A stretch of 64,000 nucleotides of DNA from Escherichia phage vB_EcoM_F1: the sequence record NC_054912.1; one strand, 5' to 3'. Both the position numbers and the translations under genes were made by a program. Shown piece after piece: positions 3,014 through 45,328 of this stretch. Position 1 is the stretch's first letter; each line of letters opens with the position of its first letter. Below the pieces are notes generated by a model. It did not search any database. It saw nothing but the letters and a program-made list of their open reading frames with translations, and was not told the DNA's origin.

Positions 3014-4029
3014 TGTGTTGCCTCTACATATAGCTGATTTGCATATTGAATAAGTGCTTCACGGTCAGAATCAGTGATGTCTGGAATTGCATTAATATAC
3101 TCTTCCATCAACGTCTGAAGCGATTGAACTTCAACTTCTTCACTGTCATCTGACTCGACAGAGTTATCAATTTTTGACACAACTCGTAATGAATGCACAA
3201 CTTTTTCTAGTTCAGATTCGAACTTCGTTAGATTTTTGTCTACTTCAGTTACTATAACACGTACTGATAGATTTGTAAAATCTTTATAGTCAATTTTTCC
3301 TTTAAATGGATAATGAATTCTACGATGCCAGGTAGTATTGTTTGGAATAAATTCCATTCGTTCTGTTTCTGTATCAAACATCCAGAACCCACGAGGGTCA
3401 TTCTCGTCACCTGCAGTTAGTGTCCATGGTGTCCCAATATATCTGACGTTTGCAGCCTCAGAGATAGTATGGAAGTGACCAGACCACACTTCTTTATAAG
3501 TCTTAAGGAAATCAGGTTCAAGACCGTGAGATTTCATTCCTTTATAAAAATAAAATCCATTCAGTTCCCAGTGACCAACACAAAAAGAAGCAGATGAAGT
3601 TTTGATATGCTCAAGAATTTCACCAGTATTTTCTTCACACATCCAAGGAATTAAATCAATCAAACATCCGTCAAAATCTACTGTAGTAGGCTTATCATAT
3701 ACTTTAACATTAGGATATTTAGCCAAAAGCTCAGTAGAGGCATTTGGATGCATTACATTTTTATAGTGGAGATCGTGATTTCCTACAATAGTGTGTAATG
3801 TAATTCCAGCATCATCAAGCGTTTGAACTATTTCACGAGCGAACTCCATAGTTTTATGTGTGATTGCTTTTCGCACATCAAAAATATCACCGTATTGAAT
3901 CCAGGTAGTAATTCCATTTTTCTTAGAATATTCTATTGCTTGTTTAATTCCATCAATTTGAATACCGCGAATCCACTCATCATCGGCTTTAACGCCTAAA
4001 TGCCAATCACCTAAATTTAAAATTTTCAT
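3010..4029 (-). CDS. 47: recombination nuclease subunit gp47 (Mre11/SbcD-like phosphoesterase)
   Basis: 339 aa; calcineurin-like phosphoesterase motifs (LGDWHLG, GDIFD, GNHD). Confidence 0.95.
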   Translation of the reverse strand: MKILNLGDWHLGVKADDEWIRGIQIDGIKQAIEYSKKNGITTWIQYGDIFDVRKAITHKTMEFAREIVQTLDDAGITLHTIVGNHDLHYKNVMHPNASTELLAKYPNVKVYDKPTTVDFDGCLIDLIPWMCEENTGEILEHIKTSSASFCVGHWELNGFYFYKGMKSHGLEPDFLKTYKEVWSGHFHTISEAANVRYIGTPWTLTAGDENDPRGFWMFDTETERMEFIPNNTTWHRRIHYPFKGKIDYKDFTNLSVRVIVTEVDKNLTKFESELEKVVHSLRVVSKIDNSVESDDSEEVEVQSLQTLMEEYINAIPDITDSDREALIQYANQLYVEATQ

Positions 4030-9752: not shown

Positions 9753-10223
9753 TTAATCATGTTTCCACACCCCATCGGTATTTGACCAAAGTCGCTGATT
9801 ATCTGATCCTCGCCACAGCTTTTTAGTCGGAAGATTTTTCTCATACTTCCCATCAATAATAACATCAACATATTTAAGCATTTCTAGTTGTTTAATATCT
9901 TCAAACTTATATCCTGTCCACAACCAAATGCTTTTATTGGGATAAAGATTTTTTACTGTTTGAACGATGCAATGAATCACGTCTCTGTTATCAGGATAAA
10001 GAGGGTCACCTCCGGTTATAGTTAATCCTTCTATATAATCATTATTCAAACATTCAATTAATTGTTCTAGTGTTTCACCAGTGAATGGAATACCATTTCT
10101 AGCATTCCATGTTGATTTATTATAACACCCTTCGCATTTATGCAAACAACCTGTAACGAAAAGAACGGTCCTGCATCCAGGGCCATTCACAAAATCGCAA
10201 GGATAAAATCTATCATAATTCAT
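9753..10223 (-). CDS. nrdG: anaerobic ribonucleotide reductase activating protein (radical SAM)
   Basis: 156 aa; CxxxCxxC-type cluster motif GCLHKCEGC. Confidence 0.9.
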   Translation of the reverse strand: MNYDRFYPCDFVNGPGCRTVLFVTGCLHKCEGCYNKSTWNARNGIPFTGETLEQLIECLNNDYIEGLTITGGDPLYPDNRDVIHCIVQTVKNLYPNKSIWLWTGYKFEDIKQLEMLKYVDVIIDGKYEKNLPTKKLWRGSDNQRLWSNTDGVWKHD

Positions 10224-11520
10224 TGGTGTTTAACCCTATGCATGATTTCTTTATTTTTACCGAGATTAAATCCGCGTTCGTTCGGATTTCCCAAATAACC
10301 ACATGTTCTTCTTATGGTATTCATCTTTTTAGGATCAGTTTCTCCACAAATAGAACAAACAAATCCGTTTTCAGTAGGAGTCATTTCATGGGTACTTCCA
10401 CATGTAAAACATTTATCTACTGGCATATTAACACCAAAATAATCTAAATGTTGTGCAGCATAATCCCACACGGCCTCAAGACCCTTTAAGTTATTTTTCA
10501 TATCAGGAAGTTCAACATAAGAAATGTGACCACCTGTCGCAATGAAATGATATGGCGCTTCACGAGAAATCTTTTCAAACGGAGTAATATTTTCTTCTAC
10601 TGAAACATGGAAACTGTTAGTGTACCAACCTTTATCAGTAACATCCTTTACACTTCCATATTTTTCTGTATCGAGTTTACAGAAGCGATAACAAAGGTTT
10701 TCAGCAGGAGTAGAATATAAACTAAAAGCAAAACCGGTTCTTTCAGTCCACTGTTTAAGATGAGCATTCATTTTAGTTAAAATTTCTCGTCCAATATCAC
10801 GACCGACAAGAATATTCAATTCGTGAATACCAATGTATCCTAGGGACACTGAACTTCTACCGTTTTTAAATAACTCAATTATGTCGTCATCAGGTTTAAG
10901 ACGAACCCCGAATGCACCTTCTTGGTAAAGAATAGGAGCAACAGTAGCTTTAACTCCTTTTAAGGAACTAATTCTACACATCAAGGCTTCAAAACATAAA
11001 TCCATTCGCTCATTGAATAATTCAGTAAATTTCTGTTCATTGAGCTGTGTTCCAATATAAGAATCTAACGCGATACGAGGAAGATTCAGTGTTACAACAC
11101 CAAGATTATTACGTCCATCAAGAATTTCATTACCAGTCGAATCTTTCCATACGCTCAAGAAACTACGGCAACCCATTGGAGAAACAGGAATAGATGAACC
11201 AGTGATAGCTTTATTGTTCTTAGCTGAAATAATATCAGGATACATTCTTTTGCTTGCACACTCTAGAGCAAGCTGCTTAATATCATAGTTCGGATCGTCT
11301 TTATAAAGATTAACACCTTCTTCAACAAACATAACAAGCTTAGGGAAAATAGGAGTTATCCCATCACGACCAAGACCTTTAATACGATTTTTCAGAATTG
11401 CTTTCTGAATCATTCGTTCAGTCCAGTCAGTTCCCGTACCAAATGTAATTGTTACAAAAGGCGTTTGCCCATTAGAGCTGAAAAGTGTATTTACTTCATC
11501 ATTATATTCAGCATGAGTCG
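10220..11520 (-). CDS. nrdD: anaerobic ribonucleotide reductase NrdD, exon 2
   Basis: Class III RNR sequence including the C-terminal glycyl-radical region (RRTCGYLG); 5' boundary is the 3' splice site, placed only to about 20 nt. Confidence 0.85.
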
Positions 11521-11727
11521 CAAATTCATGCCCGTTTATATGAAACAACAAAATTTGGATAGTCCATAGATATGCAACGTTCTTTTATAGTGCTAGGATG
11601 AAAATTTAGCGCTTTAGCTGCTTCTATATAAGACGTATACTTAATACCGTCAACAACCACATATTCAGGAACTTTATGAATAGTAGTCTTAATACTCAAA
11701 ACAAGAGGATGAGTTTCGACTTCACTT

Positions 11728-12297
11728 TCAGTGCAATTTAAATATTCCGCTGCTTTTTTTAAAACTTCTAAAAGTTTTATTTTTAAGCTTTATCGATACT
11801 TGTTTTTTACTTTTTCGACTATTGATATTATTTTGCACATGTTCCTTAGATCTTCCGTTTTTAGCATAATATTCAGCTATAGAAGATTTTATATTGTTTT
11901 TATGAGATTCGGATAACACTTTACCCTTATGAGCATCTCTTAATTTTTGAATATGTTCTTCAGTATCCGGATGCTTATAAAACTTTTTACCGCCTATGGA
12001 TTTATTTAAACATTTTTTGCTATAAAAATGTTTACGTATGACCTCTTCTTCATGTTTTAATGCATCTTTATAACTATCAAATGTTTTTAAAATTATCCAT
12101 TTAGTAGGTGTATCAGTTTTTAAGCGTTCATTTATATACTTAGATGACGTTGTGTAAGTTTTCCAGTTTGTGGGCTTGTTTTTAATTGTTCTAAATTTTT
12201 TATAACCGATATAAATGTCGCCGTTAGAAAACTTAACTAAGTATGTAAATGCGTCTTTATCTTTTATTTTAGTACAACGTCTTTTTATCCATTTCAT
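11728..12297 (-). CDS. intron-encoded GIY-YIG homing endonuclease (I-TevII-like), N-terminal catalytic part; gene appears frameshifted
   Basis: 189-aa ORF with GIY-YIG-type motif (FSNGDIYIGY); a C-terminal HTH-like segment continues in the +1 frame at 11528-11790. Confidence 0.7.
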   Translation of the reverse strand: MKWIKRRCTKIKDKDAFTYLVKFSNGDIYIGYKKFRTIKNKPTNWKTYTTSSKYINERLKTDTPTKWIILKTFDSYKDALKHEEEVIRKHFYSKKCLNKSIGGKKFYKHPDTEEHIQKLRDAHKGKVLSESHKNNIKSSIAEYYAKNGRSKEHVQNNINSRKSKKQVSIKLKNKTFRSFKKSSGIFKLH

Positions 12298-12336
12298 TGT
12301 TTCACCTCGTATTCATAAGATAATCTTATTTATACA

Positions 12337-12344
12337 AGATGACT
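12337..12344 (-). promoter_or_regulatory. late promoter (TATAAATA) inside the intron, upstream of the endonuclease ORF
   Basis: Plus tatttata = TATAAATA on minus strand, about 40 nt upstream of the ORF start. Confidence 0.55.
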
Positions 12345-12537
12345 GCTGCATGTCGCCATGCAGATTAGACTATATCTTCATCTTTCGATGCCGGCCGTTT
12401 CGAATAGCATTAGCTTCTATTCTACACCGCTACATTCATCACGGTTAGTCGTTAGGCATTTAGTTCAAAAGAACATTTAGCACGGGATTGTCTACTAGAG
12501 AGGTTCCCCGTTTAGACCGGTTTTACATGAGCCTGAA

Positions 12538-13083
12538 TTAAATTAACTCATACGCCTGGAACGCGTCATAGACATCTTTTTCTGTTTTAGATTGAGCATA
12601 ATTCAATGCATCAGCGATTTGCCATTTTTCTGCATCCTCAATATGTTTTGCATAGGTGCGTTTAACATAAGGAGAAAGTACTTTATCTACATTCGCAAAA
12701 GTCGTTCCGCCATATTGATGGGAAGCAACCTGTGCAGTAATTTGTGCCATAATTGCAGTAGCAACACCGATTGATTTAGGAGTTTCAATCTGTGCATTAC
12801 CAAGCTTAAATCCATTCTCAAGCATTCCTTTTAAATCTACTAAACAGCAATTAGTAAATGGAAGAGCAGGGGAATAATCAATATCGTGGAAATGAATAAT
12901 TCCGCTTTCATGCGCTTTCATAATAAAAGACGGGACCATATTTTTGGCAATGTGTTTAGACACAATACCAGCCATAAGGTCCCGTTGAGTTGGAAAAACA
13001 CGAGAATCTTTATTAGCATTCTCGTTTAAAAGGTCTTTATTAGTTTTATGAATCAATCCTTCAATTTCTTTTTCAATTGTCAT
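12538..13083 (-). CDS. nrdD: anaerobic ribonucleotide reductase NrdD, exon 1
   Basis: N-terminal NrdD sequence; the ORF reads through the 5' splice site, so the 3' boundary is approximate. Confidence 0.85.
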   Translation of the reverse strand: MTIEKEIEGLIHKTNKDLLNENANKDSRVFPTQRDLMAGIVSKHIAKNMVPSFIMKAHESGIIHFHDIDYSPALPFTNCCLVDLKGMLENGFKLGNAQIETPKSIGVATAIMAQITAQVASHQYGGTTFANVDKVLSPYVKRTYAKHIEDAEKWQIADALNYAQSKTEKDVYDAFQAYELI

Positions 13084-26583: not shown

Positions 26584-26859
26584 TTATTCGAGGGAAAGAA
26601 GATACTTACTCTGGTAAAACATTCCAGTAATATCATCTATCGTGCTTTGGATGGCTGGAGGCATTTCTTTATAAATGCTGTTAGATTGGTCTAGTATGCG
26701 ATCAATCATTTTAATTGTGTCGGTAGGAAGTTTACTAGCATCTGGAATTGAAGGTGTGTATTTTCTACCAGAATACCCCAAATATTGCTCACCAAATTTA
26801 TCAATCAAATCTGGCAACTCGGAGAAAATAAAATCGTCTAGCATAACTTTTAGTTTCAA
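26584..26859 (-). CDS. hypothetical protein (rI.-1 position)
   Basis: 91-aa ORF just downstream of rI. Confidence 0.5.
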
Positions 26860-26955
26860 AATGCGCAGAATGAAAATAAGCTTGTGCAGCCATTAATAAA
26901 CCTAAGTATTCATCTGCCTTTGAAGGTTTTCCACTTTGTGAAAAGTCGCTGAATT

Positions 26956-27249
26956 TCATTCAGTCTCCAATTTAATGTTCATAATTCTAGCGTATGATTG
27001 TGCCATCTCCGCGCCTCGCTCTATACATTCAAAATCGGAAGAGCACGGGTCATTTTTATAAGTCGTTCGCATAAAACTATAGAACTGTTCAGATGATTCT
27101 ACGCTTTTATTTTCAAAAAGCATATAAACGTGTCTAATACCAGATTCCATAAATTTATCAAAATGAGGATCGACATTCGCTTCAATTGGTGGAGATAAAG
27201 CAAACGCTAATCCTAGCATGGCAAATAGTGCCGTTGCTTTTAAGGCCAT
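26956..27249 (-). CDS. rI: lysis-inhibition regulator rI
   Basis: 97 aa with N-terminal signal-anchor; matches T4 RI. Confidence 0.9.
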   Translation of the reverse strand: MALKATALFAMLGLAFALSPPIEANVDPHFDKFMESGIRHVYMLFENKSVESSEQFYSFMRTTYKNDPCSSDFECIERGAEMAQSYARIMNIKLETE

Positions 27250-33958: not shown

Positions 33959-34414
33959 TTAAAAGAGGTTGTTCATTATTCGGTAAAGTGAAGGACCCAT
34001 CACATATTGCCACTGAGTACGAGGAATAAGAGCAAAAGCATCCATCTCTGGAATCATAACGCCATCTTTATTTTCAAAATAAGACTCGCAATGGCAATTT
34101 CTAAACATCTCATGCTCTACTGGAATCGTATAATAAAATAACTGTAAGTCTTTATTACTAGAATATTTAAATACACCTAGGTCTTCTAGAAGGTCTGGAT
34201 TATAATTGCTAAAACCGGTCTCTTCTAAGCATTCTCTTCGTGCTGCATCTAGTGCACTTAAATCAGAGTTTTCTACACGGCCCTTTGGAATATCCCAACG
34301 ATGTGCCATCATTCCAGGCTTACGAGAACCAGTAACCCGACCCATAAATAAATCTTTATCTTCTGTCATAAAGATAATACCAGCTGATAGTGTTTTCATT
34401 TTAATTTCCTGCAT
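33959..34414 (-). CDS. nudE: Nudix hydrolase NudE
   Basis: 151 aa; Nudix box GRVENSDLSALDAARRECLEETG. Confidence 0.85.
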   Translation of the reverse strand: MQEIKMKTLSAGIIFMTEDKDLFMGRVTGSRKPGMMAHRWDIPKGRVENSDLSALDAARRECLEETGFSNYNPDLLEDLGVFKYSSNKDLQLFYYTIPVEHEMFRNCHCESYFENKDGVMIPEMDAFALIPRTQWQYVMGPSLYRIMNNLF

Positions 34415-34587
34415 TCAGTGATAAAGTTATTTAAATTTTGAGTATATTTCTTTTCATCAAAAATCTTTTGCTGTCTGCGTAACCGCCATGGCATTTCAAT
34501 GAACATACGCCATATTCCTGATAATACTGCTGCTGTAAAAATATTAACAAGTATGGTTAAAAGAACCCAATCTCCTATTCTGTCCAT
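34396..34587 (-). CDS. small membrane protein
   Basis: 63 aa, hydrophobic N-terminus. Confidence 0.45.
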   Translation of the reverse strand: MDRIGDWVLLTILVNIFTAAVLSGIWRMFIEMPWRLRRQQKIFDEKKYTQNLNNFITECRKLK

Positions 34588-34883
34588 TGGATTTTTATAA
34601 AAAAGTAAAATACGAACGATGATATAGGAAGACTAATGATATACCACAGAAGAACCTTCTTATCTGTGAACCATTCAGCATTCGTTAACTTAGCGCGACC
34701 GTTTTGAATACATACGAACTTATCATCTGTTACAGTAAATGGCTTAGCTGCTTGATACCCCATTCTAAACTCCCTAATTAATCGTTTCTTTGTATCTTCA
34801 GAACAGCCGCTCCAGTCAACTCTATCAACTGAAATGCCATCGTCCCCATCATCTAAATCATACCAGCGAGTTTTTAAAATCAT
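34575..34883 (-). CDS. hypothetical protein with C-terminal TM segment
   Basis: 102-aa ORF. Confidence 0.45.
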   Translation of the reverse strand: MILKTRWYDLDDGDDGISVDRVDWSGCSEDTKKRLIREFRMGYQAAKPFTVTDDKFVCIQNGRAKLTNAEWFTDKKVLLWYIISLPISSFVFYFFIKIQWTE

Positions 34884-37797: not shown

Positions 37798-37923
37798 ATT
37801 TTGTGAAAAAAATTTTTAAAAGTTTTAGGGAATTCTAGGGAGGGATGGGCAATTAAAGGATAGGATAATATATTATAAAGGGTATAAACTAAATGATGCC
37901 TAGAGAGGTCCAGAAAGGCCTAG

Positions 37924-44876: not shown

Positions 44877-45328
44877 TATGCCCCCTTAAAGCCAAGAGCT
44901 CGTAATCCATCTTCTGTTAAAATTCTAAATTTTATTCCACGCTTTTCAGCTAAAGATTGTGCTGCTTTCCATTTGTCGGTGTTAACAGACCAGGTATAAA
45001 TTTCATTCATAAATCTTTTCTTCGCTGCGGTTGTTAGATGCGCCGGTTTAACTGGTGGTTGTGTTTCTTTTTTAGGTTTTATTTCAATAAAAAATTCTTG
45101 TCCAGAAGAATCTTTCATCCAAATATCCATGAAGTATCTACGTTTTTTCCCTTCTGCATTACAAAAATAAGGAATTACTGCTGTTTCACTACCCCATGCA
45201 ATAATTTCTGGATTTTTATCTAACCATTCAAAAAAGAATTTTTCCCAATTTGATCTATACGTAATTTTTTTAGGGTCACCTCTATACTTTGATATATTTT
45301 TAGGAACCCATTTTCCAGAATATGCCAT
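44876..45328 (-). CDS. 4: head completion protein gp4
   Basis: 150 aa; matches T4 gp4. Confidence 0.88.

Follow-up and report, generated by a model that had tools for sequence, protein, structure and literature searches.

The closest described systems to the locus considered here are three intron-encoded homing endonucleases: I-TevI of the td intron, I-TevII of the T4 nrdD (sunY) intron, and I-TevIII of the T4 nrdB intron. All three share a control layout that combines a late promoter with a hairpin sequestering the ribosome-binding site, and a role for the late promoter in I-TevII expression has been described (PMC2988022). Target binding by I-TevI is carried out by its C-terminal domain, which a linker tethers to the catalytic domain (PMC2988022). 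An intact version of I-TevIII is found in the relative RB3 (PMC2988022). Homopolymeric runs provide a further point of reference. Runs of A or T are known sites of transcriptional slippage and of the rescue of frameshift mutations (PMC1088944; PMC5009743). Baranov et al. found selection against such runs, linked to slippage, to be evident only at about 9 bases in many bacterial genomes (PMC1088944).

Here we describe an endonuclease gene that lies in an nrdD intron and is split at a run of seven A residues. It was found in a 64,000-nt stretch of phage DNA, hereafter the window, which matches Escherichia phage vB_EcoM_FN (MZ170041.1, Tequatrovirus) at 100% identity. All genes around the nrdD intron are read from the minus strand. 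A preliminary description, made from the sequence alone, had proposed that the gene is either inactivated, expressed by frameshifting, or mis-sequenced.

The nrdD intron and its expression signals

On the minus strand, nrdD consists of exon 1 (12546..13083), whose last base is the U ahead of the 5' splice site, a group I intron of 1046 nt (11500..12545) that ends in G and occupies the insertion site of the T4 nrdD (sunY) intron, and exon 2 (10220..11499), placed from the ORF list and in-silico splicing. The Rfam model RF00028 scored 74 bits at 12577-12346 (gathering threshold 50, E = 2.1e-18), and the intron could be aligned along its length with the 1033-nt T4 nrdD intron. Joining the exons produced an ORF of 1818 nt, the length of the intron-less nrdD of phage WilhelmHis, with 601/606 positions of the product identical. 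In-silico splicing restored a full 605-aa NrdD, with the junction falling between AYE and YEVN as in T4. The features by which a group I intron is recognized (covariance model match, U before the 5' splice site, final G, and restored host ORF) were all found in silico.

Signals for expression of the endonuclease resemble those described for its relatives. Just upstream of the endonuclease ORF, the minus strand reads TATAAATA at 12327..12334, a match to the T4 late-promoter consensus, and the T4 nrdD intron has the same motif in the equivalent position. The Shine-Dalgarno sequence of the endonuclease, GAGG, is covered by a predicted RNA hairpin (12302..12342, minus strand) with arms at 12342-12332 and 12312-12302, a folding energy of -17.8 kcal/mol, and z = -4.65 relative to shuffled sequences. 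Apart from the reading frame, the promoter, ribosome-binding site, and hairpin of the endonuclease look intact at the sequence level.

The surroundings of the intron were also compared with related phages, using the flanking exon regions 11460-11499 and 12546-12575. The 40 nt of exon 2 beside the splice site carry about 9 differences from the intron-less WilhelmHis allele, and the protein across the splice junction is identical to that of WilhelmHis over the 18 residues shown. Such exon-flank differences may reflect co-conversion or target-site divergence protecting the intron-containing allele. Further downstream, nrdG (9753-10223) follows directly after nrdD (to 10220) with a 4-nt overlap. 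At this junction T4 carries the HNH endonuclease gene mobC and phage FL23 carries another homing endonuclease gene. Because nrdG abuts nrdD, this hotspot for homing endonucleases is empty in the window.

A reading frame split at an A7 run

The endonuclease gene extends over two reading frames of the minus strand. Its first part (11728..12297) consists of 189 codons and a stop, from ATG at 12297 to TGA at 11730-11728. This part encodes the catalytic GIY-YIG domain, the linker, and the N-terminal half of a NUMOD1 module; the last 8 residues it encodes are out of frame. The second part (11526..11753, 75 codons plus stop) lies in the +1 frame and encodes the remainder of the NUMOD1 module and a C-terminal helix-turn-helix module. 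Between them is the A7 homopolymer (11754..11760, minus strand; T7 on the plus strand), the site of a one-base insertion relative to all other copies, which have A6. The run takes up two Lys codons, 180 and 181, along with the first base of codon 182, and the frames overlap around it by about 20 codons. The +1 frame is open for 87 codons (11789-11529), 75 of them past the run, and terminates with TGA at 11528-11526. At the window's stop-triplet frequency of 0.071, at least 85 open codons would be expected by chance with p ~0.002. Deleting one A from the run yields a single protein of 256 aa; T4 I-TevII has 258 aa.

These measurements reproduced every coordinate in the preliminary description, including the end of the GIY-YIG ORF after 189 codons and the overlap of the frames at plus-strand T7. 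Its estimate of about 85 codons in the +1 frame was close to the 87 measured, of which 75 follow the run, and the combined length of about 258 aa that it anticipated is within two residues of the repaired ORF.

Long A/T runs are strongly depleted in the window as a whole. Only 3 runs of at least 7 bases were observed in 64 kb against 61 +/- 7 predicted by a first-order Markov model, and exact A6/T6 runs are common (n = 56). Besides 11754-11760, the long runs are 37806-37812, just outside the nearest ORF of at least 50 aa, and 45265-45271, which is in frame within the gp4 head completion gene.

Identity of the repaired protein

The repaired 256-aa protein and T4 I-TevII are colinear from the first to the third-from-last residue, with 56% identity (256/258 residues aligned, E = 9e-102). 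This pairwise alignment, named as a check in the preliminary description, holds end to end. Taken by themselves, the 75 residues after the run aligned with I-TevII residues 182-255 at 53% identity (E = 2e-28). Homology to T4 I-TevII is a more decisive argument that the downstream frame is coding than the chance expectation of its open length.

Domain searches gave a consistent picture. Pfam placed the GIY-YIG domain at residues 9-86 (SegE_GIY-YIG, 27-28 bits, cut-off 25) and NUMOD1 at residues 171-193 (25.2 bits, cut-off 22.8), the latter straddling the frameshift, and found a second, weaker NUMOD1/HTH match in the C-terminal piece. PHROGs assigned the repaired protein to a homing endonuclease family, and in NCBIfam no family matched the endonuclease. 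A phmmer search of the single endonuclease sequence against the PDB returned no match, and a family profile was needed. The profile matched both the catalytic domain of I-TevI (1MK0/1LN0, E = 7.7e-7) and, at profile positions 208-250, the helix-turn-helix end of its DNA-binding domain (1I3J/1T2T, E = 5.5e-7). The AlphaFold model had a mean pLDDT of 81.9, reaching about 95 for residues 211-250.

Conservation among relatives extends to both ends of the protein. An exhaustive HMMER search found 252 relatives with E <= 0.001; among the best 150 of these 252 listed, about a dozen were full-length (~240-280 aa) and aligned out to about residue 250. Across 14 aligned full-length relatives, no variation was seen at the catalytic Y19, Y29, G31, and E83 or at A226 and A227 of the C-terminal module. 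The best-conserved block in these relatives was the C-terminal V-x-I-D-G-x-x-Y-x-S-Y-x-x-A-A-x-A-L-G-V. At its N terminus, the ORF in the window retains the GIY-YIG domain and its characteristic Tyr, Tyr-x-Gly, and Glu residues. The 41 A6 copies encode the DNA-binding modules in one polypeptide with the catalytic domain, whereas in the window these modules are present in the DNA but fall in the +1 frame beyond the A7 run, outside the zero-frame product.

Pfam, the profile matches, and the intron site all agree with the original assignment to an nrdD-intron GIY-YIG endonuclease. Likewise, the NUMOD1 match and the profile match to 1I3J support the view that the +1 frame encodes a C-terminal helix-turn-helix DNA-binding domain. 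The comparison with I-TevII needs one refinement: judging by its sequence, the enzyme is an I-TevII-like variant, 56% identical to T4 I-TevII and carried by about 35 sequenced phages, rather than T4 I-TevII itself. This form and the T4 form were the only two clusters found in the protein-homologue search.

Two further observations came from the set of relatives. Three metagenome proteins of 650-778 aa (P0019, P0020, and P0022) repeat the C-terminal module (~213-253) 9-11 times each, forming long arrays of the NUMOD1-like DNA-binding unit. In the nrdD record of phage U5 (AY262145.2), the endonuclease match starts only at residue 41 (84% coverage, 57% identity), which suggests that the T4-type I-TevII gene of this phage may lack its 5' end.

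Run length and broken alleles in other copies

The intron ORF was present at high DNA identity in 42 phage records, with the 41 others at least 99% identical. Run length in these 41 was determined with an 86-base query around the run, which aligned to a stretch one base shorter. All 41/41, corresponding to about 34 distinct phages without RefSeq/GenBank duplicates, have A6 and a single frame of 256 codons (771 nt), and in A6 records this 771-nt ORF is annotated as a homing endonuclease. A metagenome contig carrying the intron ORF at 99% identity or more (L008) has A6 as well. When the site was sought as an exact pattern allowing A5-A9, IMG/VR viral contigs gave no match, and the metagenome scan gave this one contig. 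T4-type I-TevII genes read TTT AAA TCA GCT at the frameshift site and lack a run. With A7 in the window's source alone, the frameshift is a derived singleton, the opposite of what programmed recoding would lead one to expect.

Other copies of the gene are broken elsewhere. In phage 236Ecol005PP (1852-2623 of L003), one additional G lies at about codon 114 of the endonuclease. On 7 Logan contigs the product is 96 aa long and closes with ...YSKNV; this ending fits the loss of one A from an A6 run at about codon 95 (A6-to-A5), as read from the protein and the ORF DNA. A 130-aa C-terminal fragment was found on 14 Logan/ENA contigs. Taking the broken-allele proteins together (P0016, P0014, P0011, and P0012), decay of the nrdD-intron endonuclease gene is recurrent as judged from these sequences. 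We also asked whether Y90H and V140I in the window copy point to relaxed selection. Neither substitution occurs in the five other copies used for comparison, but a T4-type relative also has H90, and the two substitutions were set aside as uninformative.

Weighing mutation against sequencing error

A single additional base in a homopolymer, unique among 42 records, is what a miscall in the consensus of a true A6 run would look like, and both A7 records come from one laboratory that used MiSeq sequencing and the Geneious assembler for each. One of them is the window's match, vB_EcoM_FN (168,411 bp; Illumina, TruSeq Nano library; bioRxiv 10.1101/2022.07.04.498734). The other is vB_EcoM_F1 from the same laboratory, whose deposited proteins include identical 189-aa and 57-aa products (QLF81648.1 and QLF81815.1). 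For the F1 genome (MT682712, 168,410 bp), a KAPA HyperPlus library was read on the Illumina MiSeq to 125x coverage (run SRR12228473; PMC7471389). F1 and FN share their source type and the locus-tag numbers 0078/0079 as well as their laboratory, and FN tags begin with FN1NEW_. Given these tags, the near-equal genome lengths (168,411 vs 168,410 bp), and the shared split products, F1 and FN may represent a single phage that was deposited under two names, possibly with shared data, which would favor an artefact. The two records are independent in library and software rather than in isolate, and their support for A7 is at the assembly level, which would be compatible with a minority of A6 genomes in the population.

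Nevertheless, several results make a sequencing or assembly artefact very unlikely. A Logan contig assembled from the raw reads of SRR12228473 is identical to window positions 12504-8728 at 3777/3777 nt (100%), A7 included; this assembly was made with different software and is independent in software only. The extra A appears with two library kits, KAPA HyperPlus and TruSeq Nano. Errors in an Illumina consensus are rare at a 7-base run with 125x coverage. Finally, no homopolymer frameshift affects an essential gene of the 64-kb window. Mis-sequencing, one of the options left by the preliminary description, is therefore largely excluded, since the Logan assembly of reads from the sibling phage also has A7.

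An assembly prone to homopolymer errors overall was also rejected. Relative to the 96%-identical phage Isf-Pm2, no replication, structural, or essential gene is split in 64 kb, and the only other split genes are the accessory rI.-1 and e.2. In rI.-1 (~26836, minus strand; ORFs around 26587-26959), an 11-bp deletion, rather than a homopolymer change, splits a 128-aa gene into two frames. FN alone among 494 matching records has this deletion, whose sequence suggests that a second accessory gene has probably undergone a genuine loss of function. The e.2-like gene (34399-34883, minus strand) has T5 at 34592 against T6 in Isf-Pm2 and phage T6, splitting a 162-aa ORF. At least 5 records (fPS-2 twice, ELT1, AV121, and FN itself) aligned at the window length at this site, and ELT1 and AV121 have two CDSs annotated there. 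The e.2 split looks like a circulating polymorphism in sequenced phages rather than one specific to FN.

Less likely alternatives: recoding, switching, and split function

If the extra A is real, the gene could still yield active enzyme. Leaky or programmed recoding, by loss of one A by RNA polymerase or a +1 slip of Lys-tRNA on AAA-AAA-A, would keep the intron mobile through the wild-type 256-aa enzyme. The frames overlap by about 20 codons around the run, slippage within the run would restore the exact wild-type FKKAAEY, and a Lys-tRNA paired with AAA in the P site could shift one base downstream and pair perfectly again, so that some full-length product is physically possible. However, the frameshift is not conserved, with A6 in frame in the homologues and no run in T4. 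At 7 bases the run is also below the approximately 9 taken as long enough for efficient RNA-polymerase slippage. Past the run, AGC occupies the A site; it is a common codon and not a stop, and inspection of the sequence near the A7 run revealed no stop codon or Shine-Dalgarno-like stimulator. A -1 shift on a dnaX-type A-AAA-AAG heptamer was also rejected: the heptamer does not match the phase of the zero frame, and a -1 shift yields the wrong frame. Programmed frameshifting is recognized by a conserved two-frame architecture and by a phased slippery site with a stimulator or a run of about 9 bases, neither of which exists here. We therefore regard maintenance of homing by recoding as a very improbable account, and the suggestion that the gene is expressed by frameshifting went unsupported, every other copy having A6 in a single frame.

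A related idea is that the A6/A7 tract acts as a reversible on/off switch, flipped by replication slippage and leaking through RNA-polymerase or +1 ribosomal slippage. The recurrence of frameshifts at A runs in other copies would fit such contingency-locus behavior. If the tract were a switch, the phage could silence a potentially costly nuclease and re-activate intron homing in mixed infections, yet we consider this extremely unlikely. Even less credible to us is that the split gene is functional as it stands, with the 189-aa fragment cooperating with a 57-aa fragment started at TTG 11699, or with the truncated protein having acquired a new role. The two pieces are annotated as separate CDSs in GenBank, and the 57-aa piece does hold the entire C-terminal helix-turn-helix module. 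Against this, no Shine-Dalgarno sequence precedes TTG 11699, the arrangement is confined to one lineage, and the breakpoints of other broken alleles lie elsewhere in the gene, a pattern that looks more like random decay than like a split under selection.

Probable inactivation and its consequences

Among these explanations, a genuine and very recent A6-to-A7 insertion that pseudogenizes an I-TevII-like homing endonuclease of the nrdD intron is highly probable. Inactivation thus ranks as by far the most likely of the three options in the preliminary description. The extra A most likely originated by replication slippage in the vB_EcoM_F1/FN lineage. The predicted zero-frame product of 189 aa would keep the GIY-YIG domain (Y19, Y29, G31, and E83) and most of the linker. 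Truncation would fall in the middle of the first NUMOD1, and the product would end before the C-terminal helix-turn-helix module, where conservation in the family is highest.

The I-TevI literature assigns target binding to a C-terminal domain tethered by a linker. By analogy, a catalytic domain without its DNA-binding domain should be unable to find the homing site in an intron-less nrdD. Because the DNA-binding modules are missing from the zero-frame product, the intron in the window can, on this analogy, no longer drive its own spread, and we infer that its homing drive has been lost. The intron would then be inherited vertically, with splicing and NrdD production unaffected. Traces of full-length enzyme might still arise through rare RNA-polymerase or +1 slippage, or by A7-to-A6 reversion, and would be incidental rather than designed. 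A break of this kind is how the decay of homing endonucleases classically begins, and I-TevIII of T4 is a known precedent.

The finding is an ordinary one, of little importance beyond annotation. FN1NEW_0079 and FN1NEW_0078 ("hypothetical protein"), along with their F1 twins, should be merged and flagged as one I-TevII-like pseudogene, and the pair of CDSs labelled "ribonucleotide reductase" should become one gene that spans the group I intron. Nonetheless, the locus offers a clean, datable snapshot of the first step in the cycle of homing-endonuclease gain, decay, and loss, in which the intron is perfect and the gene freshly broken. Moreover, vB_EcoM_SP1 from the same laboratory has the intact allele and forms with FN/F1 a natural, isogenic-like pair for studying an uncharacterized I-TevII variant.

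Comparison with known systems

The A7 run resembles established slippage sites, such as the A9 of Thermus thermophilus dnaX, the A9/A8 runs of IS elements, and the A-AAA-AAG of E. coli dnaX, in that a run of A lies at the overlap of two frames encoding one protein. It differs from them in being unconserved, only 7 bases long, in the wrong phase and direction for a -1 heptamer, and unaccompanied by a stimulator. With I-TevI of the td intron, the repaired enzyme shares the succession of GIY-YIG domain, linker, and modular DNA-binding domain ending in a helix-turn-helix, although the similarity is at the profile and fold level only and the target gene is different.

I-TevII of the T4 nrdD (sunY) intron is alike in host gene, in its insertion site between AYE and YEVN, in the position of the ORF in the 3' part of the intron, in the layout of late promoter and ribosome-binding-site hairpin, and in colinearity over the full length. 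In contrast, the two proteins differ at about 44% of residues, the A run is lacking in T4, and the T4 copy is intact and active (PMC2988022). As for the state of the gene, I-TevIII of the T4 nrdB intron, an HNH-family enzyme, was inactivated by a large deletion rather than by a one-base homopolymer insertion, but it too is a naturally inactivated endonuclease in a still-splicing group I intron of a T-even ribonucleotide reductase gene.
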